A DNA stretch of 64,000 nt from an uncultured Chloroflexia bacterium (GCA_963774265.1 CAVZDU010000007.1:128001-192000); one strand, 5' to 3'. Numbered from the stretch's first letter, positions 25,067 through 51,756 are shown. Translations and numbers: made by a program. The notes: generated by a model not told the origin, from the letters alone.

Positions 25067-26368
25067 CAGGGTGATTTCATAGTGCGGGTGCGCCGAATAA
25101 ATGCAGGGCGCGTTGCGGATGGGCTGCGTAGCAACGGGTGGCGGCGGCGAGATTGCTCCAACCGTGGAAGCGCAGGGTGGAGATGACGGCATTGCGAATG
25201 GCCGCCAGGGCCTGGGCCGCGGTGCCGGTATGCACTTGACAGCGATCTTCACCGAAGGTCCCGTCCCGCACGTAGTGCAGGCGATTCTCGATGGTCCAGT
25301 GGCCGCGCCAGACCTGCTCCAACTGGTCCGGACCCGCCCAGGCGGCCGGCAAACTGGTCAACCCATAAGTGACCTCGGTTTCGTATTTGCCGGTGCGCTC
25401 GTGAATGCGGCGGCAAGTGCGCCGCAGCACTTGGGCTACGCCTGGCCAAGTCAGATATGCATTCAGGGCCGTGGTCGTGACCAGTGTCCGCCGCTCCCAG
25501 CGCCCATGCGCCTTGTCGGTCGTACGGTGGGACGCGCACTCGCCCGATTGGCGCGGCAGCGGTGGTTCGTCAAAGACCAACTGGGCGGCCCAGTAGAGCG
25601 TCGGCTGATTCTTCTTGAGGATCATCAGGTAGTGGCCCCCCTGATCCAGGATTTGTTGGGCGAGGTGGCGCTGCGTCAGCAGGGCATCCATCGTGGTGAT
25701 GGTGCCGGTCAGATCGCGACCGGCCAACAAGATCGGAACGGCCGTGATCTCATTGGTTTTGACATCCACGGCCGCTTGGCCCAGGACATAGGCGCTCTCA
25801 TGGCGCACGAGACTGACCAGAAAGGTATGCTGCCCGTGGGCGCTGGCCCCGCGCACATCCTTGCCGTCGACCGCCTGGGCGCGCAGCACCTGACCCTGGC
25901 GGAGCCGAATGGCGCCGCAGGTGACATCCGCCTGATCGAGCGCCTGATGGTACGCCGCCACTTGCTGCTCCAGGCTGTACATGTCGATGTGGGCCACCAA
26001 CCGCCGCCAGGTCGCCGCACTGGGCAGGCGGGGACAGGCCGGCTGCAGGGTGGTCAACAGCTCGCTGCGCTGGTCACGCGCCCAACCGACCATCGCCAGC
26101 ACGCTCGTTTGGCCGGCTGCCATTGCCGCCGCCAGCAACGCCAACAGATACGTCCAGGCAAAGCGGCGGCCGCGGGTACAGCGAAAGTCAGGAACTTGGC
26201 TCAGGTAGGCCAGCAAGGTAGACTGCAGTGGATCCATCGGGACGAACCTCCTTGTGATTGCTGTCACTGAGATTCTAACCGATGGATCCTTGCCTGGCCC
26301 ACGTGTGGATGCCGAATTGCCACAAGCGCTGCTACCTGCCGCCTCGGCCGCAACATGACTTCGCCCTG
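25067..26368 (-). mobile_element. ISAs1-family insertion sequence, complete (1302 bp)
   Basis: Imperfect TIRs CAGGGTGATTTCAT / CAGGGCGAAGTCAT; 9-bp TSD TCGTCTAGC at 25058-25066 and 26369-26377. Confidence 0.9.
25077..26237 (-). CDS. ISAs1-family transposase
   Basis: AVDGK, KTNEI, TMDALLTQ, HGRWERR, RGHWTIENRLHYVRD..EDR; AGGAGG RBS. Confidence 0.95.
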   Translation of the reverse strand: MDPLQSTLLAYLSQVPDFRCTRGRRFAWTYLLALLAAAMAAGQTSVLAMVGWARDQRSELLTTLQPACPRLPSAATWRRLVAHIDMYSLEQQVAAYHQALDQADVTCGAIRLRQGQVLRAQAVDGKDVRGASAHGQHTFLVSLVRHESAYVLGQAAVDVKTNEITAVPILLAGRDLTGTITTMDALLTQRHLAQQILDQGGHYLMILKKNQPTLYWAAQLVFDEPPLPRQSGECASHRTTDKAHGRWERRTLVTTTALNAYLTWPGVAQVLRRTCRRIHERTGKYETEVTYGLTSLPAAWAGPDQLEQVWRGHWTIENRLHYVRDGTFGEDRCQVHTGTAAQALAAIRNAVISTLRFHGWSNLAAATRCYAAHPQRALHLFGAPAL

Positions 26369-26997: not shown

Positions 26998-27915
26998 TTA
27001 TGATGCCTCCGCGCTGAGCGCCTCCGCGATCCGGAAAAACCCCGGCGGCACAGCGCCGCCATCCTCGATGTCCCAACACGCCGACAATAGGGTTGCAACG
27101 AATGCACACGCGGCCAGTCGCTGGCGGTCGAGCGCGAGGTGATCGGCCAGCAGGTCAAGACGCCGGGCAGTCACTCGCCGAATGTCAGGCCACGATAGCA
27201 CCCGGGGCACTGGGTTATAAACAAGCGGACCCACCTCGAACGCGGGCTCTGCTGCTACGCCCTTCGGGTCGATCGCCAGCCATGGCTCACGTTCTGCTTG
27301 GAGGATGTTCCAGTGATGGAAGTCGCCGTGGATGAGCGTAGGTGGCGGTTGTGAGGCAAGGAGGTCGGCCAGCAAGTCGTTGGAGCGGGCAACAAGCAGC
27401 GCAGGCAGTGCATTGCCTCTTGGAGGGCTTTGCTCTGCATACCGCCGCAGGCTGCGTGTCCATCGTCGCAAATCGGGGAATGGGTGGCCGGCGCTCAAGG
27501 GGCGCCACAGACGGCGCATGACATCTGCAGCAATCATCGTGGCAGCATCGTCATCGCCTAAGTGCGCCAGGGGCATGCCTGGCCGTACTCGCTCCATCAG
27601 AAGAATGCCGTCCGTGGCATCCGCATCGAACAACTGCACCGCGCCTGCACCGTCATAATACCGCAGCGCCTCGATCTCGGTCGTCAACTCCGGGTTTGGC
27701 ACGCCGAGCTTGAGCACCGCCTCGGCGCCGTTGGGTAGCCGAACCGGCGCCACATAGTTGTAGGACAGGGAAAACGCGGGCAGCACCCGCAACCCCCAAC
27801 GCTCCTCACACTCGGTGATCAGCGCCGGAAGCCGCTTCAAAAAAACGGGCCCGGCCTCCGGCCAAGCCCCTGTGACTGTGGCTGTGAACGCTTGGGGTAG
27901 TGTAGACAGGCGCAT
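26998..27915 (-). CDS. Aminoglycoside/hydroxyurea phosphotransferase family kinase (APH(6)-like)
   Basis: SYNYVAP, AVLKL, HGDFHHWNIL, WLAIDPKG. Confidence 0.85.
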   Translation of the reverse strand: MRLSTLPQAFTATVTGAWPEAGPVFLKRLPALITECEERWGLRVLPAFSLSYNYVAPVRLPNGAEAVLKLGVPNPELTTEIEALRYYDGAGAVQLFDADATDGILLMERVRPGMPLAHLGDDDAATMIAADVMRRLWRPLSAGHPFPDLRRWTRSLRRYAEQSPPRGNALPALLVARSNDLLADLLASQPPPTLIHGDFHHWNILQAEREPWLAIDPKGVAAEPAFEVGPLVYNPVPRVLSWPDIRRVTARRLDLLADHLALDRQRLAACAFVATLLSACWDIEDGGAVPPGFFRIAEALSAEAS

Positions 27916-27916
27916 A

Positions 27917-28660
27917 CTAGCAGACGATAAGGTCGTCGATCCGCAATTCGATGCCATCCGATGGGAGTTGGATCACAAGGCGATGCTTCCCAGGAGGAAT
28001 GCCAGGAAGGGAGAAGGCGCCAAGATCATCCACCGATGCGATGGATGTGATTGCTTTCCCTATCTCGATTCTTGCAGTCACGCCGGCGAAATCCGAGGCG
28101 CCTGCGATCGATCCAACGATCTGGCGCGTGTTTCGGCCCAGTCGCTCAGACCGATTCTTGAGTGTCACCAGGACATGCTCGGCATCATATACCAGCGGTG
28201 CATCGCCTGCGGAGGGAGCGTCTCCGCGCAAGGCAGGTGCAAGCATCCCCGCACCGCGGTCCAGTGTCAAGCTAGACAAGCGCGCATGCACGGTGCGCAG
28301 CATCCCAACACCGTCTATTACTCCGCCGCAGTCACTTGATCGGGCGAGGTCCGCCACAAACGCGTCGAGCGCGGCCAACTCCGCTCGACATGTCGGGCAG
28401 TACGGCAGGTGTGCTGACACCTCGCTTGCCCGCTCTTCGGTGAGCAGGCCCAGGCGAAATTCGCCCAGTTCGAGAGACCGAGGGCAGCCGGTGCGGTAGA
28501 GCAGAGCCTGTAACATGAGTTGCTCGCGTACAAGGGCGTTAGCCCGCGCCCGGCACGTTGGGCAAGCTGACAGATGATTCACAATCTCGACGCTCGTTAA
28601 CTCATCCGCATAGGCGAGAAGCTCAAAATCGTCTGGCGTGGCAGGGCCTATGCAGGGCAC
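27917..28660 (-). CDS. Putative cytoplasmic zinc-binding anti-sigma factor
   Basis: Two HxxxCxxC motifs (HLSACPTC, HLPYCPTC); directly downstream of the sigma gene. Confidence 0.7.
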   Translation of the reverse strand: MPCIGPATPDDFELLAYADELTSVEIVNHLSACPTCRARANALVREQLMLQALLYRTGCPRSLELGEFRLGLLTEERASEVSAHLPYCPTCRAELAALDAFVADLARSSDCGGVIDGVGMLRTVHARLSSLTLDRGAGMLAPALRGDAPSAGDAPLVYDAEHVLVTLKNRSERLGRNTRQIVGSIAGASDFAGVTARIEIGKAITSIASVDDLGAFSLPGIPPGKHRLVIQLPSDGIELRIDDLIVC

Positions 28661-34744: not shown

Positions 34745-36530
34745 TGTAATGGGATCATACGTTTGTCCTCTACATAGGGCAGAGAGGTTTGTCCGGTTGG
34801 CGCGGTGGCTTCCACGGGCAAGTCGTGATCCAGGCCTGCTGGGGGGTGTAGACCTCCAGACCGATGTCGGTGGGGACCACGGCGAGCGTTTGGCCCTTGT
34901 GGCCGATGCCGACGAAGTAGAGGCGGTTGTGAAAGGAAATCTGGCCGTTCTGGTTGACGCGGCGACTTGGCAGAGTGCAGTTCGTTGTTGGTGACGTAGG
35001 AGGGGTCTTGGGCTGCGCGGGAGTGGCTTTGGTGGGCGGTTGCGGATACAGATGCTTACAGGGTAAGGTCTTCTGCGTGCCATCAGGTAGGCTGACCGTC
35101 CAGGTATCCTGGCTGCGTTGGATGGTCAGGGTCTGACCGGTCCAGGCGATCCCGACATAGTAACGGTAGCACTGAAGCGTCAGACAGCCTGCGCGATCTA
35201 TCTTGCGGCGCACGGGCTGCGGCAGGGCTGGTGGCGGCGGTGGTACGGCTGGTTGCACGGCTTGTGCGTGGAGGTCCCAGGTACGTTGCCAGCCATCCGC
35301 CACTTGACCGACGGCCGACCAGCCAGTGACCGTCACGGTGATGGCCTGGTGCGCATAGCGCCGGCTGAACGGCAAGCTGCGGCCGGCCAGGCGGATGTGT
35401 CCGTTGGCATCTACTTGCCGGGATAGCACCAGGGACTCTTGGGTGAAGGGCACTTGCGCAGGATCGAAACCGGCCGGTACGCGGCGTGCACTCGATTGAT
35501 AGACCGTCACCGGGGGCTGATCCTGACAGCGGCTGTGACAGCGCTGCTCGTTGTAGAAGTGGCGGGCTGTTTCGACGGCCTGCGGCAGCTGCGGGTCATC
35601 GCCCGGCGGCAAGACGACTTCCTGGCGACACGTGCGCACATAGCGTTCGACGACGCCGTTCCACCAAGGCTGTTTGGGGCCCACTAACAGGTGATAGACG
35701 CCCAAGGCGCTGAGCACGCGCGTCAGGGGACTCGGTAGGCCGCTCACCCCGTCGTACCACAGCTTGTCATGATCGGTCTTGACGATTCGGGGCAGACCAT
35801 ACTGCTGGGCGACATTCAGAAAGCTGTGCACGACCAACGCCTCGCTCAAGCGTTGCGCCGTCAGCTGGCCCAACTCAAAACGGCTATGCAGATCCAGCCA
35901 ATGCAGGGTGTACCAGATACTCCCGTCCGGGAGGTGCGTTTCGTGGATGTCCGCCGCCCAGATCAGGTTGCAGGTCAGGTAGTCGATGTGCCGCGGCGGG
36001 GGGCGCTCCGACGCTGGGGCGGGCGGATCCAGTTCCGGATGGCGAGCCAGGACCCGCCGCACGCGGCCGACACTAACCCAGCGTTGGCGTTCGGGCTCGT
36101 TACGCCACTGCCAGCGCAGTTGCTTGGCAATCTGGCGTCGCCCCCAAGCCCCGTGGGCTTGTTTCAACGCACACATCGCCACCTCGATCTCGGGCGGTGT
36201 CTGTTGCGGCGAGCGCTGCGGCCGGGACGAATGATCGCACAGGCTGGTCATCCCGACCGCCGCATCATAGCGGCCCACCGTGCGGCGCACCCAACGCACC
36301 GGACGCTGCAACCTGGCCGCAATCTCACACTGACGCAGCCCACGCTGTTGCAGTTCGATGGCCAAACAGCGATCAGCGTAATCTCGAGCCGGACATCGTG
36401 GCATGGCAGCACCCCCTCGCTCCACAAAGGAAGTACTGCCAGCTTAGGCGATTTATCTGTCGTCGATCAAGGGCAAGAGGACAAACGTCTGTGCCCACTC
36501 TGTAGAGGACAAACCTCTCTGCCCACTACA
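34745..36530 (-). mobile_element. IS481-like insertion sequence (1786 bp)
   Basis: TGT..ACA ends, 30-bp TIRs matching 24/30, 7-bp TSD CCTTAGT at 34738-34744 and 36531-36537. Confidence 0.88.
34770..36404 (-). CDS. IS481-family DDE transposase (HTH + integrase core + three C-terminal beta repeats)
   Basis: WAAD, LDLHSR, KTD, NGVVER, YNEQRCHS; three RxV/IxxxG repeats. Confidence 0.88.
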   Translation of the reverse strand: MPRCPARDYADRCLAIELQQRGLRQCEIAARLQRPVRWVRRTVGRYDAAVGMTSLCDHSSRPQRSPQQTPPEIEVAMCALKQAHGAWGRRQIAKQLRWQWRNEPERQRWVSVGRVRRVLARHPELDPPAPASERPPPRHIDYLTCNLIWAADIHETHLPDGSIWYTLHWLDLHSRFELGQLTAQRLSEALVVHSFLNVAQQYGLPRIVKTDHDKLWYDGVSGLPSPLTRVLSALGVYHLLVGPKQPWWNGVVERYVRTCRQEVVLPPGDDPQLPQAVETARHFYNEQRCHSRCQDQPPVTVYQSSARRVPAGFDPAQVPFTQESLVLSRQVDANGHIRLAGRSLPFSRRYAHQAITVTVTGWSAVGQVADGWQRTWDLHAQAVQPAVPPPPPALPQPVRRKIDRAGCLTLQCYRYYVGIAWTGQTLTIQRSQDTWTVSLPDGTQKTLPCKHLYPQPPTKATPAQPKTPPTSPTTNCTLPSRRVNQNGQISFHNRLYFVGIGHKGQTLAVVPTDIGLEVYTPQQAWITTCPWKPPRQPDKPLCPM

Positions 36531-37976
36531 CCTTAGTGGCGCTGGCCAAGCGCAGCGTTTGGGACTGGAAGCGCTGTCCGACCTGTGGCGGGACGTGGAC
36601 GAGTTGCTGGGGCACGTATCCCCGTCACCCCTGGTTCCTGGATCGGGGCCGGCAGGAGGTGCGCATCCAGCGCCACAAGTGCTACGCCTGCAACAAGACG
36701 TATTCGGAGCGGTCGGCCCTGCTGGTGCGCGGTAGTTGGTATGCCCGGGACGTTCACCGTTGTGCGGTCGACCACTGGCAACACGGCGGCACCTCATTAC
36801 GGCGGACGGCGGAGTTGCTGCGCTCCTGGTTGGGGCACCAGGAACGTTGGTTGCTCTGGCGACCGCTGGATCCCGAGAGCGGCGAGCGGTGTTATTTGGC
36901 GGCCAGCACCGTGCAGCGCTGGCTGGACGGGGCCGGCAAAACGGCTCAAGCCAGCGTGGACGGGCAACTAGCGGGCATTGCCCACACGCACGCGGTGGGC
37001 ACGGACGGCTTATGGGCCAAGCTGAAAGGCAAGGCGCAGCGGGTCGTGCTGCTCATCGTGGACAGCGTTACCGGCCTGGTCTATCCGCCAGTCGTGGCCA
37101 AAGGCGAAGGGTCGGTAGGACCGTGGCAGCGGCTGTTTGAACGGGCTAAGCGGGCCGGACTGGACGTGGATGCCCTGCGCGGCGCAACGTCCGATGGCGC
37201 ACAGGGGCTGCTGGCTTACTTGCGCCGGAGCCTCGCCTGGGTCCAGCATCAGCGCTGCGTCTGGCATTTGTGGCGCAACCTGGGAGGCGAGCTCGCCAAA
37301 GCCGCCAGCGAAGCGGCGGGCGACCTGACCGGCGAAGCTGCCGAGCACATCCGCAAGCAAACCCGAGATGAGTTGGGCGGGCTGATTCACAAGATCATGG
37401 ACGCCCAGAGTTACACTGAGGCGGAAGCAGCGTTAGCCACGCTGCTGGGGCATCCGCTAGGCGCAACCCTCGGCAAGCTGCTCAATGAGCAACTCGATCG
37501 GGTACTCGTGCACCTGCTGGCTTACTACCAAGGCTTGCAGCGGGTGACACCCGAGTGGTACTGGCGAGATTTTCGCTTACGACTCAGCCGCGGCCGCAAC
37601 CACCGCTCGGATCAGCGCCTGGAGCGGGCGACCCTGGTCTGGGCGATCTACCATAACTTCGAGCCCGCTCAAGGGAGGTCTGAGCGTAAACGTCATTACC
37701 GGCATCCCGGCCAAAGTGCCCTCCAAGTCGCCGGCGTGCCACCCGGAAAAGTGAGCTACCTGGACGCTTTGGGCGTGTAAACGCCCACGGTCCCGTCGCT
37801 TGTCGCCCCTTACCGGCGGCGAGCGACGGGAGGCAAAGTCTGCGCAGCCGTCTGCCGATTATCACCTACCAACAGGCCGACTCGGTCCGCCAACATAGGA
37901 CGGAACCGAGTCTGCAATTATGCGTTGCTATCATCGTCTGCTATCGTTGTCTGAACAACATTGGAAAGGTAGGCGC

Positions 37977-41527: not shown

Positions 41528-41781
41528 ATGCAGAACACGACCTGGCCGCATGATTTTGTCATTCGACCCCCTCGCCCCGACGAGGTTGAGTCAGTCACCG
41601 CGCTTATCTGTGCGTGTGATGTGGCCGATACCGGCGAGCCCGACTGGACTGTGGGCGAGACGCGCGCGGACTGGGCGTGGACGCGAACAACCCCTCGGCC
41701 ACGAAGCTCTACTGTGGCGTGGGGATGCGCTCGCTGCAGGAGTACGTGCAGTATCAGCGGCCGGCGGCGTCGACGGGTTGA
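41528..41781 (+). pseudogene. GNAT acetyltransferase remnant with a large internal deletion
   Basis: GNAT-like N-terminus joined out of frame to the C-terminal motif LGVDANNPSATKLY..GM. Confidence 0.65.
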
Positions 41782-43004
41782 TTTGGCTCCCTGGACTTCG
41801 CCGGCAGCCAACGCACCACCGGGACGGATAGGAGCGAAACAACGGCCGCCGCAGCAAAGGCGGTGCGCAGATCGAACAGGTCCCCTATCCGGCCCACAAT
41901 GATCACGATGATCGAGCGGATCAGGAAACTGAGCGCCATATAGAACCCGTTGGCCAAAGCCCGGTTGTGGGGGAAGTTCTCCTGGATGAGCGCCATGATC
42001 ACCGGCGTAACGGAGAGGGAGGTGAGTCCGAGCAAGATCAGCAGGGGGAAGCGGGCCCAACCGGACGCGGCCAGGAAGAGGAACATCAAAATCGCTGTGG
42101 GCAGGATCGATAGAAAGATCATCAGCCGGCGGCCGAGCCTGTCGCTGAGCGTGCCGCCGAAGAACGCGCCGGCCACCCCCGCTGCTTGCAGCACCGACAG
42201 CGAGACGCTGGCAAGCCAGAAACTCTCGCCCTCGTCGTGCAGAAGCACGGGCAAGTAGGTGACCAATGTGACGCTCTGGATGATCTGGACCACCAGGATC
42301 GCCAGCAGAGGCGCCAGGAGCCGGCCTTTTCCCTTCAGTTCTTGTCGCAGCGAGGTAGCTTTGTTCTGCAGACCGCGCACGCTCCGCCGGTCTGCGGGCA
42401 GTGCGAATAGCAAGAGAGCCGAGGTCACCAGGCCGCCGATCATCAACCAGGGCATACGTTGTTGGCCCATCAGTGGGATGAATGCGCCGATGACCAGGGG
42501 ACCGATGAACCGGCCGGCCTCGCCGCCGACCATCCAAATGCTCATGCCCAGCCCTAGTTTGCTGCCGGAGACGTTGCCGGTCATCACCGGCCCAACCGCA
42601 TGCATACACGCCGAGCTCAAGCCCGCGATTGTCAGCAGGATTGCCAAGGCAAGATAGCTCGGTGCGACCCCCAACAGGCTCATGGCAATGGCTGTGACCA
42701 TAGGCGCCAGGATGACGAAATAGCGCGCATTGAAGCGATCTGCCACCCCGCCAATCACGGGCTGCAGGAGAGAAGCCTCCTGCATGAAGACCGACAGCAG
42801 CCCGGCCTCTGTGTTCGAAAGGCCCAGGGTCTGTTTGAAGATGATCAGCATCGGCGCCAGGAAAGCCGTGTAGCTGTCGTGAACCCAGTGGCTGGCAGCA
42901 ATGGTGGCCACGCGGCCGCTTTCGAAACCGGTTCGCTCGGCGGCCATGTCAATCGGTACGGCGGATGTGATTGTGGTTTCTGTTTGATTGCCTGCAGTGG
43001 ACAC
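41754..43004 (-). CDS. MFS transporter (Fsr-like)
   Basis: HWVHD, QPVIGGVADR, GTLSDRLGRR; ~12 TM; start approximate. Confidence 0.88.
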   Translation of the reverse strand: MSTAGNQTETTITSAVPIDMAAERTGFESGRVATIAASHWVHDSYTAFLAPMLIIFKQTLGLSNTEAGLLSVFMQEASLLQPVIGGVADRFNARYFVILAPMVTAIAMSLLGVAPSYLALAILLTIAGLSSACMHAVGPVMTGNVSGSKLGLGMSIWMVGGEAGRFIGPLVIGAFIPLMGQQRMPWLMIGGLVTSALLLFALPADRRSVRGLQNKATSLRQELKGKGRLLAPLLAILVVQIIQSVTLVTYLPVLLHDEGESFWLASVSLSVLQAAGVAGAFFGGTLSDRLGRRLMIFLSILPTAILMFLFLAASGWARFPLLILLGLTSLSVTPVIMALIQENFPHNRALANGFYMALSFLIRSIIVIIVGRIGDLFDLRTAFAAAAVVSLLSVPVVRWLPAKSREPNQPVDAAGR

Positions 43005-43074
43005 TAGCTTCTCCTGGTGTGGGTTCGATGGGGTGTGGTAGGACCGGTCACAGATACGGGGCCCCGTGGATCCG

Positions 43075-43457
43075 TCAAGGTGCATTCCCTTCCTGGATTT
43101 CAATGTGCGTCATTCCAAAACTAACGCCGCTGCTGACCCGCAGTTGTTTGCTGCCACACGTGCAGCCTTGCGCGATTGCACGGGCCATGATGATGTGCGG
43201 ACGTTCCAGCTCCCATGCGCTCAGATCGGCTTGCTGGCCGCACACGGCGCACTTCATTTCCAGGGGCATCACTACGAAATGGAGCCGGGCCCCTTCCGCC
43301 ACGGTGCCACGGCTCAGATGATCGAAAAAAACCTCGACCGACGATGCCACGATCGCAGATATACGACCGACCTGCAGATAGATGTCCGTGACGCGGATCC
43401 GCCGGCATGCTCGAGAGCCATGTTGAGGATTGCCTGGGTCACGGGCATCTCATGCAT
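43075..43457 (-). CDS. hypA: HypA/HybF nickel metallochaperone, 1-nt frameshift near 43395
   Basis: MHEM N-terminus; CAVC..CTCGS; GTVAEGA. Confidence 0.8.
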
Positions 43458-44133
43458 GACGGTCACTTTGGATAGCGTACTTGTTCGCCCGCATCTGGCG
43501 TATCCAATCGAGCCAGGCATCCAGGCCTTGCCCGGTCAGGCCGGACACCTCGAAGACGACCAGGTCCGGATTGACCGAAAGGGCATTTTTGCGCAACTGC
43601 GCGGTGCTGGCCGGAATGTAGGGTTCCAGGTCGATTTTGTTGATCACCAGAGCCTGGGCCGCGAGGAATGACATCGGGTACTTCAAGGGCTTGTCGTCGC
43701 CCTCGGGCAGGCTGGCTACGATGACTTTGAAGTCCTCACCAAGATCCCAGCCCGTCGGACAAAGCAGGTTGCCGACATTCTCGATAATCACGACGTCTGA
43801 TTCGTCGATGTTGATCTCATTGAGAGCCGCCCGGATCATGTTCGCTTCAAGATGGCAGCCGCCCCCGGTGTTGATCTGCACCGCTGGCACGCCTGCGGCA
43901 GCAATTCGTTCGGCGTCGAGACTGGTTGTCGGATCGCCCTCAATGACGCAGATCCGCAATTCATTGCGTAGTTTCTCGATGGTGCGTTCGAGCAAGGTCG
44001 TCTTTCCGGCGCCGGGCGAGGCCACGACGTCGAGGACGAGCACGGCCTTGCGTTCGAACTCCGAGCGCAGACTGGCTGCCAGCACGCTGTTGACCTCGGT
44101 GATCTCCCTGAGAACCGGAATCACCTTAACCAT
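43450..44133 (-). CDS. hypB: HypB nickel-insertion GTPase
   Basis: SPGAGKTTLLE, GGGCHLEA, ENVGNLLCP, EGDDKPLKYP, NKID. Confidence 0.93.
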   Translation of the reverse strand: MVKVIPVLREITEVNSVLAASLRSEFERKAVLVLDVVASPGAGKTTLLERTIEKLRNELRICVIEGDPTTSLDAERIAAAGVPAVQINTGGGCHLEANMIRAALNEINIDESDVVIIENVGNLLCPTGWDLGEDFKVIVASLPEGDDKPLKYPMSFLAAQALVINKIDLEPYIPASTAQLRKNALSVNPDLVVFEVSGLTGQGLDAWLDWIRQMRANKYAIQSDRHA

Positions 44134-45283
44134 GGAAGTCACCCCCCAGGTTGACGCATGGCGGCGCGGAGGCCGGGCGCCGGTCCACCCCGTGGAAATC
44201 ATCCGGATGATCGCGCGCCGCACACGGATCCGCTGCCAGCATGACCCGCCCTGGCTCGCGGGTGCCCAACGGGCGCATGGTGATCGCGGTGTCGGGGCAC
44301 GTCATGGCGCACAAACCACACCCCCAACACTTTTCGGGGTCGAACAACACAGTCTTGCGGCGCTTGCCATTGACCTCGATCTTGGTGCCGTCATGGTGAA
44401 ACGCATCGAAATGGCAGCGCTTGACGCACAGGCCGCACTGTTCGCACTTGCTCATGTCGCGTTCCGCAACGTGGTGGGCGCGGGGCCACTGCCGGTGCAG
44501 GCCCAGCAATGCGCTGGCACGGAACGGGTAGCAGTCGCACCCACAGCAATTACAGAAGCCAAAGAGCCCCTCATGCTCGCGCCAATATCGGTCACCCGTG
44601 TGCATCAGACCGCTGCGATTGCTATTGATCACGATGTTTTTCATTTCTTCTTTCGTGACCTGGCGGCCATGCCCGCGTTCGAGCGTAGCGCGCGCGCCTT
44701 CGTCCAGCCGGATACAGGTTTCGGATGGGCGTTTACAGGCCATGACGACCGCGCGACAGTCACACGGCACGACAACATGCTCCGATGCAGCCTCAACCAT
44801 CTCCAACGCCTCATCCAACAGCAGCACATCTCGATTCGGTATGCGCACGTATTTGTCCGGGTCCTGGCGAATCTCGTCAACGATGGGCAGCCAGACGGCC
44901 ATAAACTCTTCCAGCTGCCACTTGATCACTGCATCGCGCGCATCCGCCGGAACGTCACCCCAGTTCTCGTACATCGAAAGTGGATCGAGGCGAAGATAGA
45001 ATGTGGCGGGCGTGTAGGTTGTCACATCATCGACGGTCTTTCGGTTGATCACGTGCCGCCTGAAAGAGGAGTCCAGTAACGCAGCTGTCTCATCAGGGGA
45101 AATGGCGAGACGCTCGGCAATTTGAGCCGCGGTCAGCGGGCCATCACCGAGAGCGACGACGAGCTCCATCTCTCTGCCCTGAACGACGAAATCAATATGC
45201 GGCGTCATGGCGGGCGGCAACTGGAATATGAGGGCGAACTCATCGAGGAGTGCCAATGCCAGGTCTCCCTTTTCGTATGTCAT
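44126..45283 (-). CDS. 4Fe-4S binding protein with an N-terminal HTH-like region
   Basis: CDCR, CNCCGCDC, CEQCGLCVKRC, CWGCGLCAMTCP. Confidence 0.85.
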   Translation of the reverse strand: MTYEKGDLALALLDEFALIFQLPPAMTPHIDFVVQGREMELVVALGDGPLTAAQIAERLAISPDETAALLDSSFRRHVINRKTVDDVTTYTPATFYLRLDPLSMYENWGDVPADARDAVIKWQLEEFMAVWLPIVDEIRQDPDKYVRIPNRDVLLLDEALEMVEAASEHVVVPCDCRAVVMACKRPSETCIRLDEGARATLERGHGRQVTKEEMKNIVINSNRSGLMHTGDRYWREHEGLFGFCNCCGCDCYPFRASALLGLHRQWPRAHHVAERDMSKCEQCGLCVKRCHFDAFHHDGTKIEVNGKRRKTVLFDPEKCWGCGLCAMTCPDTAITMRPLGTREPGRVMLAADPCAARDHPDDFHGVDRRPASAPPCVNLGGDFHG

Positions 45284-45294
45284 AGAAGGCGCGT

Positions 45295-46732
45295 CTACCT
45301 TGCGTCAGCGACGATCTTGTCAAGTGCCTGCTGTACATCCGGCGGCAGCGGCTCGGGCTTGTGCGTTGCCAGGATCTTCAACGCCTTCTCCTGTGCGCGC
45401 TGCCGCAGTGTCTTGCCGCCGGACCGGCTCCAGTCCTCGTATGGCTTGCGGTCAAACAGCTTCGGATACCAGTCCTTTCTGTAGTGTAAGCGCGTGTGGT
45501 CCGCGCCCATGAAGTCGCCGTGAGGGCCAATCTCGTCGATCAGGTCTCAGCGCGAGGGTCTCCTCGTTGATCTCTAGCCCCTTCATGAACTGCTTGGTGT
45601 ATGCAATCAGTTCATCGCAGATGACGATCTGCTCGATCGAATTGCACATGCCCCCTTCCAGGTAGCCAACGTCATGGACCATCTCTGCACCCGCAAGGGT
45701 TTCCAGGATGATGGAGAATGCGGCCTCAGCCGCGGCCTGTTCATCCGGTATCTTCGAGTCGCTGCAACCGGCCAACCCGAAAATGGGCAGCCCGTAGCGG
45801 TGCGCCAATTCAACCAGCATGACGCGGTTGTTGGGATCCGAGTACGCGTCGACCATCGTGCGCATATCGAGCATGTCATTGACGCCCCCGGTCAGGATGA
45901 CCGGTGCACCCTCGCGCTTGATCTGGCTGATGACAAGACCTGCCAGCTCGCCCGCGTTGGCCAGTGCGATCGCGCCGGCCGCGGTGACCGGTCCGCTGAC
46001 GCCGCGCAGGACGACCGGCGTGTAGGTGGTGGGTAGGCCCTTCTCCGCCATGAAGAGTAGTTTCTGCAACGCCTCGCCGTTGTGTCGCAGTGGATGGGTG
46101 ACGTTGATATAAAGCGCACAGATCGGGTTGCGCCGCAACGCCTCTTCTCCACCGGCCACTGCCTCAGCCATGCGGACCACGTCCACACAGCCAGGAAATT
46201 CGGTTGTGACGAAGAGGATGGGCTTCGTGCTGTTTATCAGCATCGCGCGCATCTGGTGACGATCGGACACCGCCTGATCCACGTCAGATGCGATGCAGAA
46301 GGACATGAGGAAGTCGATATTGGGTAATGCGTCGCATACCAGTGTTGCCTCCTCGATATCGTGCAGTGTCCCGACGCGGCGCTCGCCCGTTCGCACGTCA
46401 ATCACGTTCAGGCAGTCTGAGCCGGGACCATAGAAGACATTGTTGCGCTCCAGGGGCATCACGCGGCGACCATTGCGGTCGCAGATGACCGCACGCTTGG
46501 GCGCGATGCTCAAGGCCCACTCGACCAGGCCCGGGGGAATGCGCACGCGGTTGCCATTTTCGATCTTCAGCCCCTTGCGCCGGAGCAATTCAACCGCCTC
46601 TGGCTCGTAGAGGACAACGCCGGTGCGATCCAGGATTTCCAGGCTAGCATGGTGAAGCCGCTCGGTCTGGTCGTCCGAAACCTTGCGAAAGCGCGGCGTG
46701 TCGTAGGAGGTATAATTGCTTTGAACTGTCAC
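45295..46732 (-). CDS. Trimethylamine methyltransferase (MttB superfamily), non-pyrrolysine; 1-nt frameshift near 45548
   Basis: LHHASLEILDRTG, GPVTAAG, YGLPIFGLAGCSDSKIPDEQA, GYLEGG, EETLAL/DLIDEIGPHGDF. Confidence 0.88.
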
Positions 46733-46734
46733 GA

Positions 46735-47664
46735 TCAATGCTCCTTCGGTTTGGGATTGAAGGCTGTTGCGCGCCGTGCAGCTATGTCCAACGCTTCTTC
46801 GACCAGGACGGGCAGCACGGCCAGGCGGTATTCGCGCGACGCGCGCAGGACGTTGCTGCGTGGGTCCGCGTCGGACAGGGCGAGCTGTGCGGCCTCCGAG
46901 AACGTCTCTTGCGTGGGCCGGCGACCGACCAGAAACGCCTCCGCATCGGAAGCGCGGATTGGACACGGGCCAACCGGTCCCATGGCAATGGCGGCAGACT
47001 CGATCAGATCGCCATCGAGCACGATTCTGGTCGCGCAGCTGAGTGTTGGCAGCACCAGGGAGGGCCGCCTTCCCGCCCGCTGCCACCCCGTGCCCCAGGG
47101 ATGCCTCGGAATGGGGAAGCGGATGTGTGTCACGAGTTGCCGCGTGGAATCGATGCGTGAATGGCCCGGGCCGGCAAAAAGTGAGGCCACGGACCGCCAT
47201 TCCGAAGCGCCCCCGTGGGATTGGGAACGGTCCTGCAGGAACGTTGCGCCGCTCAGCGCTTTGACCTGAACTTCCGCATCGAGCGCGATGGCGATGATCG
47301 CACCATCGGCCGCGGGCATGGCCTGAACCAGGTTGCCCACCCATGTTGCCGCGGTTTGGATGGCTAACGCACCCACGGACCCAGCAGCGTCGGACAGCGC
47401 ATGGACGTGATTGGCGAGATACGGGTGCTCGCGCAGCGCGACAAATGGCACGGCCGCGCCCACGGTGATCCAATCCTCGCCCACGTCGATTCGCCCCAAA
47501 TCCGGAATGCGCGTGATATCGACGAGGCACGCAACGTGGAGCTTGCCCTTTTCGATGTCAGGAAGGACATCGGTGCCGCCCGCGATGATGCGCGCCTGCC
47601 CATCGTAGGCCGCCAGCAGTCCGAGCGCCTCCTCGTCCGTCGAGGGGAACAAATACTCGGTCAT
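46735..47664 (-). CDS. Molybdenum hydroxylase FAD-binding subunit (CoxM/XdhB-like)
   Basis: IAGGTD, ITVGAA, AATWVGNL, PAAD, ASREYR. Confidence 0.9.
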   Translation of the reverse strand: MTEYLFPSTDEEALGLLAAYDGQARIIAGGTDVLPDIEKGKLHVACLVDITRIPDLGRIDVGEDWITVGAAVPFVALREHPYLANHVHALSDAAGSVGALAIQTAATWVGNLVQAMPAADGAIIAIALDAEVQVKALSGATFLQDRSQSHGGASEWRSVASLFAGPGHSRIDSTRQLVTHIRFPIPRHPWGTGWQRAGRRPSLVLPTLSCATRIVLDGDLIESAAIAMGPVGPCPIRASDAEAFLVGRRPTQETFSEAAQLALSDADPRSNVLRASREYRLAVLPVLVEEALDIAARRATAFNPKPKEH

Positions 47665-50600
47665 GGCGCAACATCTCGGTGGGATCCACGGTGACGCGCT
47701 TCTGATTCTGGGTGTTCGGGGTCCTCCGCGGCAGAGTCGATCTCCATCTCTCCACGTATCGCGGCCAGGACGCGCTCAGGTGTGGCCGGGATCGTGCGCA
47801 GCCGATGGCCGATGGCGCGGGATACGGCGTTGATGATCGCAGGCGTCGCGGGCAGCATAGCCGCTTCGCCCAAACCCTTTACGCCGAACGGACCGAACAG
47901 GCTCGGCGCCTCGACAAGGATGACTTCGATCTGGGGCATGGACTTGATCGTCGGCATATAGTAGTCTGCAAAGCCGCGCGTATGGCCGGGAAGGACCTCC
48001 TCCATCAGAGCCGCGCCCAGACCCATGATAAGCGCACCCTCAATCTGCCCCTCGGCATCCACGCGATTCACTGCGCGGCCCACGTCGTGACAGGCGACCA
48101 TCTTGAGGACCTGCACCTGCCCTGTGCGCGGGTCAACCTCGACTTCCGCCAGGTGCGCGCCGGTGACAAACAGCGGAGCGTACTCCGGCCTGGATTCTGC
48201 AGGGAAGTGAGCGTTCAGGTCAAACACGCCCCTGATCCGCCGTCCCTTCCCGAGCCTGTCGAACTCGGCAGCCGCTTCTGCCAGTGACACCCAGGAGCCG
48301 TCCCTGGCGCAGACGCGATCCCGATCGATGGCGAGCTCATCCGGCGAGCGGTCAAACAACTCGGCGGCAACCCCGAGCACTTCGTCGCGCAGGTTGGACG
48401 CGGCGGCCACGACTGCGCCGCCGACGAAATAGGTAGCGCGCGACGCGCCCTGGATACCGCTGTCCGGCGTGCGTCCGGTGTCTGAGTTGACCACGGTGAT
48501 CTGATCCCGAGAGACGCCGAGCGCCTCGGCCGCCATCTGAGACATCGTCGTGTTTGTGCCCTGACCGTAATCCGCGGCAGTGCAGTAGATGATGAAGCGG
48601 CCGCGCCCGTCCGGGGCGGTCGCCAATTCCGCGTGCGCTTCGACCCGCAGCGAGCCGGATTTGCCGAAACGATACCACATGCCTGCGAGCCCGACGCCGC
48701 GACGGGTTGCAGAGTGAGAATTGGAGGTTGAAGATTGGCGGGCGCCCGAGTTCCAGGCTTCGGCATCGGTCAGAAATGCTTCGTAGTGCGGTCGCAGGGC
48801 GTTCAACACCTCTTTGAAGCCCAATGACTCGGCCACCGGGTAGCCCAGGAACGATGGCTCCCCGGTGCGCAGCCGATTCTGCATTCTGAATTCAAGCGGG
48901 TCGACCCCAAGCACCTGCGCGAGTTCGTCGAGCGCACACTCGGTGGCAAAGCAGGACTGTGCGGTGCCGAAACCCCGATACTGCCCCGCCTTGGGTCCGT
49001 TGGTGTAAACCGTCTGTGCCTGGGCGTCCACCGCCTGCCACCGGTAGGGTCCGCCACTCGCCGTTACGGCATAATTGGGGACATACTGCCCATGTGCATC
49101 GTAGGCTCCCGTGTTGGCGTCGATACGCAGGCGGATTCCGGTCAACCGGCCGTCACGCGTTGCACCGATTTTGTTGCGCACGGTGTAAGGGTGTCGCTTG
49201 GGGCTGGCAGCGAACGACTCTTGCCGGGAGTAGACCAGCATGACCGGCCGCCGCGCGTGGTAGGTCATCAGGGCCGTGGCCACGAACGGCCAGGGATCCT
49301 GTTTCCCGCCAAACGAACCGCCGGTCGGAGGCAGGATGACGCGCACTCGTTCTCGTGGGACTGCCAGCGAGGACGAGATGTATCCTTGCTGGTAGAAAGG
49401 TTCGTGTGTGCCCCCGGTGACTGTCAGACGTCCTTCATCATCGAAGTACCCGAGCAGCGCCTCACGCTCCAGAGCGCCGTGCTCCAGGAAGGCCATACGG
49501 TATTCGCTCTCGAGAACGATGTCGGCTTCGGCAAAGGCCGCTTCCAGGTCTCCGTGGCGCACCTCGAACCGAGTGAGGATGTTGTCTTTGCCCGCGATCG
49601 GCGCCGCACCGGGTGCAAGCGAGTCCTCAACCGCGAAGGTGTGTGGCAGAACCTCGAACTGCACATCGATTGCAGCTAACCCGGCTTGGGCAGCTTCTGT
49701 TGACTCGGCCACAAGGAGCGCCACGGGCGCACCCACCATTCGCACGGTCGAGCCAATCGGAGGCAGCAAAGGCTCTTCCTGGCTGTAATCGCCCAGGCCA
49801 TTCTCGCCGGGGATGTCTGCAGCGGTGAGCACGCACACGACTCCTGGCATTTGCAGCGCGCGATTCGTATCGATGGACAGTAACCGGGCGTGATGATGAG
49901 GCGAGCGCAGAACGCGGCCTTGTGCGGTCTTCAGGCCAGTACCGGGCAGGCTCATGTCCTCGACATAACGCGCCAAGCCGGTCACCTTTCCCACCGAATC
50001 CGCGCGCAACATGCTCCCGCCAATGACGCCCGCCTGGCCTCTGCGTCCTTTCTGGGCCGTCCCTCCAATCACCCACTCCTTCGTGATCTTCGTCCCCTTT
50101 GTGTTCTTTGTGGTTGAGTGATCCTCGGCCGCAGCGCGCATTCGCTCCGCTGCCACTTCGACCGCGGCCACGATCTTCGCGTATCCGGTGCACCGGCAAA
50201 GGTTGCCTTCCAAGGCATCTACGATCTGCTCGCGTGTCGGCTGCGCAGTGCGATCGAGCAGGGCCTTGCCTGCCATCAGCATTCCGGGTGTGCAGTAGCC
50301 GCATTGCACTGCGCCGGCCTCAATGAAGGCTATCTGGAGCGGGTGCAGCCCCTCCGGCCGGCTGAGCCCCTCGACGGTGTCCACACGCCGGCCCGCGGCC
50401 TTTCCGATGGGCGTCAGGCAGGAGCGCACGGGTTGCCCGTCGAGGAGCACCGTGCATGCTCCGCACTCGCCCTCGTGATCGCAGCCTTGTTTCGTGCCGG
50501 TAAGTCCCAATTCCCCGCGCAGGACATCGAGCAGGGGGCGCGCAGGATCGACCTCGATGGTGACCTGGCTTCGATTAATCGTGAAAGAAATCTGTGTCAT
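47661..50600 (-). CDS. Xanthine dehydrogenase/aldehyde oxidoreductase family, fused 2x[2Fe-2S] + molybdopterin subunit
   Basis: GCDHEGECGACTV, QCGYCTPG, NLCRCTGY, GGSFGGK, YRGFG, KGLGE. Confidence 0.92.
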   Translation of the reverse strand: MTQISFTINRSQVTIEVDPARPLLDVLRGELGLTGTKQGCDHEGECGACTVLLDGQPVRSCLTPIGKAAGRRVDTVEGLSRPEGLHPLQIAFIEAGAVQCGYCTPGMLMAGKALLDRTAQPTREQIVDALEGNLCRCTGYAKIVAAVEVAAERMRAAAEDHSTTKNTKGTKITKEWVIGGTAQKGRRGQAGVIGGSMLRADSVGKVTGLARYVEDMSLPGTGLKTAQGRVLRSPHHHARLLSIDTNRALQMPGVVCVLTAADIPGENGLGDYSQEEPLLPPIGSTVRMVGAPVALLVAESTEAAQAGLAAIDVQFEVLPHTFAVEDSLAPGAAPIAGKDNILTRFEVRHGDLEAAFAEADIVLESEYRMAFLEHGALEREALLGYFDDEGRLTVTGGTHEPFYQQGYISSSLAVPRERVRVILPPTGGSFGGKQDPWPFVATALMTYHARRPVMLVYSRQESFAASPKRHPYTVRNKIGATRDGRLTGIRLRIDANTGAYDAHGQYVPNYAVTASGGPYRWQAVDAQAQTVYTNGPKAGQYRGFGTAQSCFATECALDELAQVLGVDPLEFRMQNRLRTGEPSFLGYPVAESLGFKEVLNALRPHYEAFLTDAEAWNSGARQSSTSNSHSATRRGVGLAGMWYRFGKSGSLRVEAHAELATAPDGRGRFIIYCTAADYGQGTNTTMSQMAAEALGVSRDQITVVNSDTGRTPDSGIQGASRATYFVGGAVVAAASNLRDEVLGVAAELFDRSPDELAIDRDRVCARDGSWVSLAEAAAEFDRLGKGRRIRGVFDLNAHFPAESRPEYAPLFVTGAHLAEVEVDPRTGQVQVLKMVACHDVGRAVNRVDAEGQIEGALIMGLGAALMEEVLPGHTRGFADYYMPTIKSMPQIEVILVEAPSLFGPFGVKGLGEAAMLPATPAIINAVSRAIGHRLRTIPATPERVLAAIRGEMEIDSAAEDPEHPESEARHRGSHRDVAP

Positions 50601-50655
50601 CTTCCAGGGTCTTTAGCTCAACGAGACAATATTCTAGCACGAGACCACGCGACTG

Positions 50656-51756
50656 TCATCGTAAGCTCGCCGCCGAGACATCTCGAGGTGGTTGTGCAGC
50701 AGACAGGATCGCTGCAACCAGGTGGCTCGGCTCCAGGCCCGGTGACGCCACCCCGCGTTCCCGGTACACCGCCTCAACCCGTAGCGTGAGGGATGCGGGG
50801 TCAACCTTCTCGCCGCGCAGCGATTGCTCAATTTCGCCAAGCGCCGTGGCTGGCAGGAGCGTGAAGTCTCCGGACAAAACGAGATCATCGATCCTGTTGC
50901 CAACCAGACGCACCGTCGCGCGCACCAATCCGCCCGGCGCCTTGAGTGTTGACTCGCCCACCCGCACATCGGCGTGAATCTTGATCCCGGTTGGGCGCAG
51001 GTCGCCCTTCCGATTGAGCCACTCCTCGGTGACGAATTCCGCGTCGAGGTTCCTGGCCGCGACCTCCTCTGCCGGCGTCAATCTGCCAATAGCGATCTCC
51101 GTGCGCAGCGCCGCGGCCGCTTGATGCAGATACAGCGCCTTGACTCCCTCGCGGTCAGGCGGCGGCTGCACCTGCTCGCTCAGGGTCGTCATGTATTGTT
51201 CCAGGCTTTCAAACACCTTATCGCGCATCTTCTCCGAAGTCACCTTCAGCACGCGCGCCATCGTCGCCTTGTCAAAGTCGAACATGATGCTGCCTACGAG
51301 CACTTCGGCCAGGCCGATCTGCGCCGCACCCGTGCCGCCGATCTTCTTCCCATCGACATGAATATCGTTGACCGGCCGATGGTAGGCATTGACGCCCAGG
51401 GCCTGGTATGTCTCGACGAGCGGCCGGACAAATAGGGCGTACCGGGCATCGAGTGCAGAAGGCAAGTCATAGCGTTGAAAAACCCACTGGACGAAGACCT
51501 GGCCCGAGTCCAGGTAGACCGCACCGCCGCCTACCTCGCGCCGATACACGGGCAGATCGTGATCGCGGCAGTAATCCAGGTCAACCTCTTTGTTGAGGTC
51601 CTGGTGATAACCGATGCACACATACGGGTGCGTTGGACTCACGAGGATGATCGTGCTCGGGCTGGCTGGTGTCAGCGCGTTGGCGACAGCATGGTACACT
51701 GTCTGCGATCGCAGTGGCGAAATATCGCCCAAGTCGAGCAAGCGCACATGCTGCAT
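50656..51756 (-). CDS. Lipoate-protein ligase family protein (catalytic + C-terminal domain)
   Basis: YVCIGYHQ, RREVGGGAVYLD, NDIHVDGKKIGG, KAPGGL, SGDF. Confidence 0.9.
   Translation of the reverse strand: MQHVRLLDLGDISPLRSQTVYHAVANALTPASPSTIILVSPTHPYVCIGYHQDLNKEVDLDYCRDHDLPVYRREVGGGAVYLDSGQVFVQWVFQRYDLPSALDARYALFVRPLVETYQALGVNAYHRPVNDIHVDGKKIGGTGAAQIGLAEVLVGSIMFDFDKATMARVLKVTSEKMRDKVFESLEQYMTTLSEQVQPPPDREGVKALYLHQAAAALRTEIAIGRLTPAEEVAARNLDAEFVTEEWLNRKGDLRPTGIKIHADVRVGESTLKAPGGLVRATVRLVGNRIDDLVLSGDFTLLPATALGEIEQSLRGEKVDPASLTLRVEAVYRERGVASPGLEPSHLVAAILSAAQPPRDVSAASLR

Follow-up and report, generated by a model that had tools for sequence, protein, structure and literature searches.

Which protein is served by nickel chaperones that are encoded away from every familiar nickel enzyme? 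The question is raised by a locus in a 64,000-nucleotide stretch of DNA from an uncultured Chloroflexia bacterium (GCA_963774265.1, CAVZDU010000007.1:128001-192000), referred to here as the window, in which genes for a HypB-type nickel GTPase and a HypA-type nickel metallochaperone share an operon with an MttB-superfamily methyltransferase and a molybdenum (Mo) hydroxylase. To our knowledge, only a handful of nickel enzymes have been described, and clients of HypA and HypB have been established only for hydrogenase and, in Helicobacter, urease. The window encodes neither of these, nor a corrinoid protein or a second methyltransferase, as had been correctly noted in the original prediction for this stretch, which proposed that the nickel client was either novel or encoded elsewhere. 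Our analysis points to an uncharacterised iron-sulfur (Fe-S) protein of 385 residues, encoded on the minus strand between the methyltransferase and HypB (44126-45283), as the best candidate for a novel client. This protein had not been singled out in the original prediction, and its gene is the one that the hypB-hypA pair actually tracks.

The window covers positions 128001-192000 of contig C7 of genome G000, which comprises about 5.5 Mb with 62% G+C in 10 contigs and has a completeness score of 84%; its relatives are Anaerolineae-type metagenome-assembled genomes (MAGs) of the Chloroflexota. In the labels used below, G stands for genomes, L for fetched loci, C for contigs of G000, and X1, X2 and X3 for short-read metagenome runs. 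The window proteins and their neighbours were mapped onto 80 loci around relatives of the Fe-S protein, with one genome per species. In 24 of these loci the Fe-S protein was at least 51% identical to that of the window, and 20 of them could be assessed, having at least 1.5 kb of downstream sequence. HypA and/or HypB was encoded directly downstream in 17 of the 20 (both proteins in 10 loci, HypA only in 7). For their part, the 56 loci with an Fe-S protein below 51% identity, 50 of them assessable, yielded no Hyp gene directly downstream (0/50). The genes of the presumed catabolic partners were distributed otherwise: MttB was encoded within 5 kb in 54 of the 80 loci overall, namely, in 10 of the 24 closer and 44 of the 56 more distant ones, while an Mo subunit of the xanthine dehydrogenase (XDH) type (at least 45% identity) was present anywhere in the locus in 1 and 10, respectively, and a corrinoid protein in 1 and 14, respectively.

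The linkage followed the phylogeny of the Fe-S protein. In a tree of 56 sequences, built from 58 of the 80 loci plus the window with L035, L036 and L074 left out, the 17 Hyp-linked rows and three unassessable ones formed one side of a branch with an SH-aLRT support of 99. The linkage persists even though the proteins concerned have diverged to about 52% identity. Nineteen positions distinguish the Hyp-linked clade from the other members; one of them is His169, five residues before C174, which is His in 94% of the 18 linked rows, Ile being found in 32 of the 35 others.

That the three genes travel together is best seen in L035, a contig of the same-genus genome G021, in which the order Mo-FAD-MttB-FeS-HypB-HypA-MFS recurs exactly (FAD, flavin adenine dinucleotide subunit; MFS, major facilitator superfamily transporter), so that the gene order is not peculiar to the window, a prospect that the original prediction had taken as grounds for dropping its proposal. 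The Mo, MttB and MFS proteins of L035 are 87 to 92% identical to those of the window (83 to 86% at the DNA level); the Fe-S protein, HypB and HypA are only 52%, 66% and 47% identical, respectively. A divergent three-gene module thus occupies the same slot, and the genes for the Fe-S protein, HypB and HypA behave as one exchanged unit.

The HypB sequences told a similar story. In the 19 genomes with the closest loci, the HypB matches were bimodal, with either 66 to 80% (type A) or 44 to 48% (type B) identity to the window protein, and the two types separated in a tree at 99/99 support. Since the groups were defined by identity, the independent evidence lies in the gene order and not in the split. 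Type A occurred in the order FeS-HypB-HypA in 12 loci and had no hydrogenase genes next to it in any of the 26 loci examined; type B occurred in the order HypA-HypB beside hydrogenase genes. A phylogenetic profile over 41 relatives, which partly overlap the 19 genomes, gave a concordant picture: type A HypB was present in 7 of the 41, all of them among the 8 relatives with an Fe-S protein of at least 52% identity, and in none of the 33 that lack an Fe-S gene of the Hyp-linked clade. Relatives with a group-3-like hydrogenase but no such Fe-S protein contained type B only.

Type A was, however, the only HypB found in five genomes, four of which have hydrogenases, and HypB probably also serves these hydrogenases. 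The hydrogenase loci of G033 and G040 contain hypA(type B)-hypF-hypC-hypD-hypE but no hypB, and the only HypB of these genomes is of type A. This pattern fits a shared HypB GTPase combined with a client-specific HypA, and the sharing would explain why HypA accompanies the Fe-S gene more regularly than HypB does. Escherichia coli provides a precedent, since its HypA and HybF are paralogous HypA proteins specific for different hydrogenases; an arrangement of this kind, with one shared HypB and a second HypA, agrees with the gene content of G033 and G040.

Both chaperones retain the hallmarks of their families. HypB (43450-44133, minus strand, 227 residues) is a divergent type A paralogue that scored 247.6 bits against TIGR00073, well above the equivalog cut-off of 121.2, and its characteristic P-loop, GCH and C-P motifs are visible. 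HypA (43075-43455, minus strand), also of type A, reached 38 bits as a fragment against the Pfam HypA cut-off of 28.9 and 60 to 74 bits against TIGR00100, below the cut-off of 88.1. Its residues M1, H2, E3, C70, C73, C99 and C102, which comprise the N-terminal MHE and the four zinc-site cysteines, were invariant in 16 of 16 aligned sequences. The window contains no hypC, hypD, hypE or hypF gene to accompany the pair. The pair departs from the hydrogenase-associated proteins in its order (HypB-HypA, behind the Fe-S gene), in a 12-residue insert in type A HypA and in the separate branch formed by HypB.

In four genomes, type A HypB and HypA are encoded between two distant paralogues of the Fe-S protein (25 to 28% identical; 271 to 302 and 360 residues), which share the motifs C-x-C-R...C...C and C-N-C-C-x-C-C-C. 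The family of the 360-residue paralogue is very large in Anaerolineae. A search with the distant paralogue of L121 returned 5,493 matches at an E value of 1e-5 or lower among 8,000 candidates; the best 120 were all of the Anaerolineae type, and no Acetobacterium protein was among them. Near HypB-HypA and the paralogues, L121:115-5038 and L122:7177-10273 also encode a DUF362 protein, a Fer4_5 protein and aldo/keto-reductase-Fer4 fusions.

Homologues of familiar nickel enzymes are encoded elsewhere in the genome. Contig C3 carries, at 78 to 96 kb, the small and large subunits of an NiFe hydrogenase and a HycI protease together with their own divergent hypA-hypB-hypF-hypC-hypD-hypE set; a second, fragmented hydrogenase-like locus lies on C1 (771.5 to 774.8 kb). 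CooS has two copies, of which one is broken, LarA-like genes number four, and no urease was found in the genome scan. The scan that had been suggested thus turned up NiFe hydrogenase, CooS, LarA and at least eight corrinoid protein matches, with urease missing. With a hydrogenase and its hypABFCDE genes on another contig, the window hypBA is a second, divergent pair, its HypB being 48% identical to the hydrogenase-linked one. The earlier description of HypA/HypB as "hydrogenase-less" accordingly holds for the window but not for the genome, and the window genes are not the sole hypA and hypB copies of a genome with an ordinary hydrogenase, the other outcome that had been named as damaging to the proposal. 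The match to a group-1-type large subunit at G000:C3:86307-87860 (L001/L125) contains one in-frame TGA near its 5' end, and orthologues in several relatives contain one or two; a frameshift, an artefact of reading upstream of the start or selenocysteine could account for them.

The Fe-S protein itself is recognised by Pfam only through Fer4 families (residues 275 to 337), and neither Pfam nor NCBIfam gave a match outside this part. An AF2 model built on 47 sequences (pLDDT 87.9) showed a winged helix up to about residue 110, with VIA Z scores of 10 to 10.8 to proteins of the MarR/ArsR/SmtB type, and a 2x[4Fe-4S] ferredoxin domain at residues ~270 to 340. A whole-model fold search returned winged-helix and ferredoxin matches only. 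The middle domain contains nine cysteines (C174, C176, C183, C190, C244, C246, C247, C249 and C251) that, like the two ferredoxin motifs, are invariant in the 47 sequences. Modelled alone (pLDDT 74.6), this domain gave a best VIA Z of 3.7 among 48,161 PDB chains and a best Foldseek E value of 4.8, which does not prove a new fold. The C-terminal tail (window 44126-44250), common to the closest relatives, comprises about 40 residues of low confidence, ends in F-H-G in 4 of 16 aligned sequences and is missing from more distant members. Selenocysteine was considered for homologues with apparent internal stops and rejected, as these proved to be natural C-terminal stops.

Homologues of 330 to 377 residues, all unnamed, numbered 463 at an E value of 1e-3 or lower among 8,000 scored candidates. 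A profile of the middle domain found 1,720 representative clusters at E values up to 1e-3 and 565 at up to 1e-10, and the best 150 matches were all of at most 440 residues with the domain at the same place. The family ranges over Chloroflexota, Firmicutes, Desulfobacterota and archaea, beside methylamine-type methyltransferases and molybdenum or tungsten enzymes; the molybdenum enzymes encoded nearby are of the XDH or the dimethyl sulfoxide (DMSO) reductase type. In Firmicutes the order is FeS-MttB-MttB-corrinoid protein, with the Fe-S gene first. Some paralogues carry Pfam TrmB, MarR_2 or HTH_Crp_2 matches. A protein of 932 residues from a Chloroflexi MAG (P0271) consists of a complete aldehyde:ferredoxin oxidoreductase (AOR) whose C terminus is fused to the whole Fe-S module, 44% identical to the window protein over 85% of the query. 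The search for fused forms yielded two proteins only and no IsrA-like one, which is weak evidence. The fusion and the MttB and Mo neighbours speak for an electron-transfer partner rather than a regulator; the winged helix leaves the latter open. A role as the corrinoid activase of the genome was also considered and appears unlikely: the protein has no ASKHA-type ATPase domain (PF14574) of the RamA/RACo type, and at least four RACo-type genes are present elsewhere.

One operon of Desulfosporosinus lacus DSM 15449 (L090:4288-17935) encodes, in this order, a sigma-54 activator, an OpuA-type betaine ATP-binding cassette (ABC) transporter, the Fe-S protein, two MttB proteins, a corrinoid protein and urocanase. 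The last of these gives a hint that the substrate of that operon is a betaine derived from histidine, for instance hercynine.

A comparable association of Hyp proteins with a ferredoxin-like protein has been described for isoprene reduction. The isr operon of the isoprene-reducing Acetobacterium wieringae encodes IsrA, HypA, HypB, a 350-residue "4Fe-4S ferredoxin" and HypA (PMC10134865). Although this organism has no NiFe hydrogenase, HypA, HypB and the ferredoxin are co-induced with IsrA, an oxidoreductase. The ferredoxin ends in a 4Fe-4S domain; its first ~270 residues can be aligned with those of IsrA, and no known domain was recognised in either, while HypA lies within five genes of 73% of 988 IsrA homologues. 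Nickel was proposed by the authors in the Cys-rich cluster site of IsrA (PMC10134865). Judged by these descriptions, the window Fe-S family is like the isr ferredoxin in length, architecture and Hyp adjacency, with hypA directly following. It differs in that the window operon has no IsrA-type FAD oxidoreductase, its partners being MttB and an XDH-type Mo enzyme, and in that nickel was assigned by the authors to IsrA and not to the ferredoxin. Dedicated ferredoxin partners of corrinoid or pterin enzymes, such as HgcB for HgcA (a weak NCBIfam match, E 7e-6) or the ferredoxin for AOR, offer another parallel, the 2x[4Fe-4S] domain of the window family likewise being encoded beside its putative partner enzymes; the window protein, in contrast, has ~270 additional residues (winged helix plus nine-Cys domain) and its own nickel chaperones.

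Taken at the level of sequence, gene order and structure models, these data are best explained by an Fe-S protein that would serve the catabolic module as redox partner and would itself be served, as client, by a dedicated HypA, a reading to which we assign a probability of about one-half. An N-methylated compound would be imported by the MFS protein; MttB would remove a methyl group and pass it to a corrinoid protein encoded elsewhere, and the XDH-type enzyme would hydroxylate or oxidise the demethylated product. The Fe-S protein would act as the electron-transfer partner of this module, and its nine-Cys site would receive nickel from the dedicated HypA as a client-specific adaptor, loaded in turn by HypB, a GTPase probably shared with hydrogenase in some genomes. 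The Hyp-linked clade thus supplies a well-defined candidate, amenable to expression, for a nickel-iron-sulfur protein of a new kind. It would stand as a second case, independent of nickel-dependent isoprene reductase, which is itself still unproven.

A more far-reaching version is offered tentatively and is less likely than the reading itself. The winged-helix/nine-Cys/2x[4Fe-4S] proteins might form a new nickel-iron-sulfur class, in whose Hyp-linked clade a dedicated HypA, loaded by HypB, would place nickel at C-x-C, C-x-C-C-x-C-x-C and the clade-specific His169, giving a very low-potential or methyl-accepting centre that would work with MttB/corrinoid and pterin enzymes. In function, such a site would recall the nickel-binding Cys-Gly-Cys of acetyl-CoA synthase. 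If correct, the class would provide, as a free-standing protein, the equivalent of the site proposed for isoprene reductase.

Several observations weigh against the Fe-S protein as redox partner and nickel client. The linkage maps to a single clade, so that a single origin is enough to account for it, and part of the synteny could be due to inheritance. The nine cysteines are also invariant in 36 family members without Hyp neighbours, and the site need therefore not be a nickel site. With type A as the sole HypB of five genomes, HypB, at least, probably serves hydrogenases too, and matches to the large-subunit family PF00374 were found in 18 of the 19 module-bearing genomes, at least one weak match being a real group-3-like hydrogenase; the notion of module-bearing genomes without hydrogenase was rejected on these grounds. 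The methyl-transfer chain is also incomplete in the window, with no corrinoid protein or second methyltransferase, and corrinoid reactivation can do without the Fe-S protein, at least four RACo/RamA-type activases being encoded elsewhere. A regulator would be equally compatible with the winged-helix domain and its Z values of about 10 to MarR/ArsR folds. As to the precedent, nickel in isoprene reductase is itself only a proposal (PMC10134865), and a 2026 preprint still treats it as a hypothesis.

Among the alternatives, the one we rank highest, while still considering it unlikely, is that the window HypB and HypA mature one particular isoenzyme encoded elsewhere, either a second NiFe hydrogenase or some other known nickel enzyme, their adjacency to the Fe-S gene being inherited synteny. 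The second hydrogenase-like locus on C1, the CooS and LarA homologues of G000, the hydrogenase-like matches in 18 of 19 module-bearing genomes and the four hydrogenase-containing genomes among the five with type A as sole HypB all suit it, as do the hydrogenase-specific paralogues HypA and HybF of E. coli. CODH (carbon monoxide dehydrogenase) and LarA, however, are normally served by other maturation factors, and type A HypB/HypA was never beside hydrogenase genes in the loci examined. Relatives with a group-3-like hydrogenase but without an Fe-S protein of the clade make do with type B (type A in 0/33), G021 has FeS-HypB-HypA but no PF00374 match at 89% completeness, and the overlap of HypB with the Fe-S gene by 8 nt, together with the exchange of the three genes as a block in L035, also tells against it. 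Slightly less probable still is a winged-helix transcription factor that would sense redox state or a metal by way of its clusters and control MttB-type catabolic operons, with the chaperones supplying the sensing metal. The superposition of the N-terminal domain on MarR/ArsR/SmtB winged helices, the TrmB, MarR_2 and HTH_Crp_2 matches of some paralogues and the first position of the Fe-S gene before MttB-MttB-corrinoid protein in Firmicutes all speak for such a regulator. Against this, the Fe-S gene of the window is co-directional and translationally coupled inside the operon, dimerisation domains of O-methyltransferases share the fold without binding DNA, the Desulfosporosinus lacus operon has its own sigma-54 activator, and the fusion to the AOR C terminus in P0271 fits an electron-transfer module better.

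We consider it improbable, and somewhat more so than a regulator, that type A HypB and HypA insert another metal (zinc, cobalt or iron) into the nine-Cys site or assist cluster assembly there. HypA and HypB also bind zinc, and the nine cysteines are conserved with or without adjacent Hyp genes; the nickel-binding MHE N terminus of HypA is nevertheless invariant in 16/16 sequences, and HypB exceeds the HypB equivalog cut-off. Far less credible than any of these is a decaying remnant in which mttB and hypA are true pseudogenes, an idea prompted by the frameshifts that both genes show in the assembly and by transposase genes nearby (34770-37780). The mttB gene is broken by one extra base at 45547, so that the Pfam match covers profile positions 25 to 412 of 500 and the last 83 residues lie in another frame, with the stop at 45295-45297; hypA is broken by one missing base behind 43394, the MHE start at 43455 being in one frame, which shifts after ~18 residues, and the remainder in the open reading frame (ORF) 43075-43350. 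When contigs of independent short-read metagenome runs were compared with window 43000-46000, the G missing behind 43394 was present in one X1 contig and in one X2 contig that showed no other difference over 151 nt, and two X3 contigs had one base fewer at 45547/45548; the runs cover small shares of the window (0.11 or less) and represent related strains, not this strain. Split or truncated genes are common throughout the assembly: in the window, a Peripla_BP_4 periplasmic binding protein appears as two overlapping ORFs (1-1772), ABC permease and ATPase genes are partial (2045-4190) and a class II aldolase is a fragment (7737-8252), and several of the 25 MttB matches genome-wide are adjacent pieces. 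Intact frames in other runs and split genes elsewhere make assembly errors the most likely cause of both frameshifts, and a completeness score of 84% in only 10 contigs also speaks against a decaying remnant.

The catabolic genes surrounding the Fe-S gene form a recurrent pair. All eight genes described originally were found on the minus strand, in the order and with the families stated (LplA-like, Mo, FAD, MttB, Fe-S, HypB, HypA and MFS), by ORF calling and by Pfam and NCBIfam profile searches. The fused 2x[2Fe-2S] and molybdopterin subunit of the XDH-family hydroxylase (47661-50600, minus strand, 979 residues; Fer2, Fer2_2, Ald_Xan_dh_C, MoCoBD_1 and MoCoBD_2) and its FAD subunit (46735-47664, minus strand, 309 residues; FAD_binding_5 and CO_deh_flav_C) make up the full domain set of the family, all above the Pfam cut-offs. 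No NCBIfam equivalog for xanthine, nicotinate-type, aldehyde or CO substrates reached its cut-off with the Mo subunit, the best being Se-dependent XDH (576 versus 830 bits). The closest solved chains were D. gigas aldehyde oxidoreductase (E 2e-110), the alpha subunit of 4-hydroxybenzoyl-CoA reductase and nicotinate dehydrogenase. The fused 2Fe-2S/Mo architecture is that of the D. gigas enzyme, and a separate FAD subunit is found in bacterial XDH and CODH-type enzymes; the window enzyme is set apart from XDH-family hydroxylases such as D. gigas aldehyde oxidoreductase, E. barkeri nicotinate dehydrogenase and 4-hydroxybenzoyl-CoA reductase by scoring below every equivalog cut-off and by being embedded among MttB paralogues.

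The methyltransferase (45295-46732, minus strand) matched PF06253 with 247 bits against a cut-off of 25. It has no in-frame TAG and no in-frame stop inside either reading-frame piece, and is thus a non-pyrrolysine member of the MttB superfamily. Its 391-residue N-terminal piece reached 286 bits against TIGR02369, the trimethylamine:corrinoid methyltransferase proper, below the cut-off of 525, and solved members (the MtgB entries 2qne and 9yce) were matched only at about E 1e-40. Corrinoid-dependent quaternary-amine methyltransferase systems include MtgB/MtgC/MtgA, MtpB, MtcB and MtyB. The window MttB likewise belongs to the MttB-superfamily TIM barrels without pyrrolysine, but its operon contains no corrinoid protein, no methylcorrinoid:tetrahydrofolate methyltransferase and no RamA, and is coupled to a Mo hydroxylase; corrinoid proteins (at least 8 matches) and RACo/RamA-type activases (at least 4) are encoded on other contigs of the genome.

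Orthologues of this MttB (78 to 92% identity) adjoin the Mo subunit in L035, L126, L049 and L051, the Mo subunit itself being 87% identical in L035 and ~71% in L126, and the FAD subunit 76% in L035. More distant Mo and FAD pairs are embedded among MttB paralogues. In G011, where an MttB orthologue (88 to 91%) follows Mo and FAD, FeS-HypB-HypA is found as a block 8 kb downstream; the genes before it encode a serine-dehydratase-like protein, a transporter, a sensor and a member of the ornithine-cyclodeaminase family. The MFS transporter (41754-43085, minus strand; Pfam MFS_1) has orthologues after HypA or further down the cluster in L035 (89%), L015 and L034 (81 to 82%), L033 (58%) and L032 (50%). 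The recurrent pairing of MttB with the Mo hydroxylase makes a shared pathway for an N-methylated compound plausible from gene neighbourhood, and the recurrence of MttB paralogues with one XDH-type clade points to an undescribed anaerobic route for such compounds in the abundant Anaerolineae of soil and sediment. The substrates suggested originally, of the trigonelline or methylxanthine type, are pure inference. In the literature we found no description of MttB combined with HypA/HypB, of the MttB superfamily with ferredoxin or xanthine dehydrogenase, or of MttB with trigonelline.

The co-occurrence of mttB, xdh, hypAB and lplA that the original prediction offered as a check was borne out for MttB and the XDH-type Mo enzyme; hypBA follows the Fe-S gene, and lplA drops out. 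The predicted eight-gene operon is accordingly a seven-gene one, Mo-FAD-MttB-FeS-HypB-HypA-MFS, whose genes are translationally packed. The spacings between successive genes, starting with Mo and ending with MFS, are -4, +2, +11, -8, -6 and -11 nt; the Mo and FAD genes overlap by 4 nt, and MttB begins with a GTG at 46732, 2 nt past the FAD stop. For its part, the LplA-like lipoate-protein ligase gene (50656-51756, minus strand; Pfam LplA-B_cat) lies at a spacing of +55 nt from the Mo gene and is a chance, housekeeping-type neighbour outside the unit. It is the sole copy in the genome; orthologues (39 to 66% identity) occur in 24 of 40 relatives, and a Mo subunit is encoded within 1.5 kb in none of the 19 orthologue loci retrieved. 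In G011 no LplA gene lies upstream of Mo-FAD-MttB. The protein scored 122 bits against TIGR00545, for which the cut-off is 280. The best promoter-like site of the region (50659-50631; 10 of 12 positions plus TG) falls in the 55-nt gap between LplA and Mo, although this is a hint only, since 2.8 sites of this kind would be expected in the scan and 4 were found. On the whole, the original observation was partly confirmed and its interpretation partly supported.

Downstream of HypA in L015, L030, L032 and L033 lies a gene for a family-5 solute-binding protein whose best, sub-threshold NCBIfam match is of the NikA type, followed by a formate-dehydrogenase-like enzyme of the DMSO reductase family, MFS transporters, and Opp-type permeases and ATPases. 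This Opp/Nik-type ABC transporter was considered as proof of nickel import and found unusable, relatives with 43 to 48% identity being present in Hyp-less loci and the NikA score being 145 versus 600 bits.

Transposase genes (rve/Mu-type, Mutator-type and IS4-like DDE) are present in the window at 34770-37780 and 25077-26267, a few kilobases away from the operon, and the module was found in 10 of 41 relatives, a patchy distribution. Together these suggest that the operon sits on an accessory, mobile region. A gene for a phosphotransferase of the APH(6)/hydroxyurea-kinase family is located at 26998-27957, adjoining a zf-HC2 anti-sigma-like gene.

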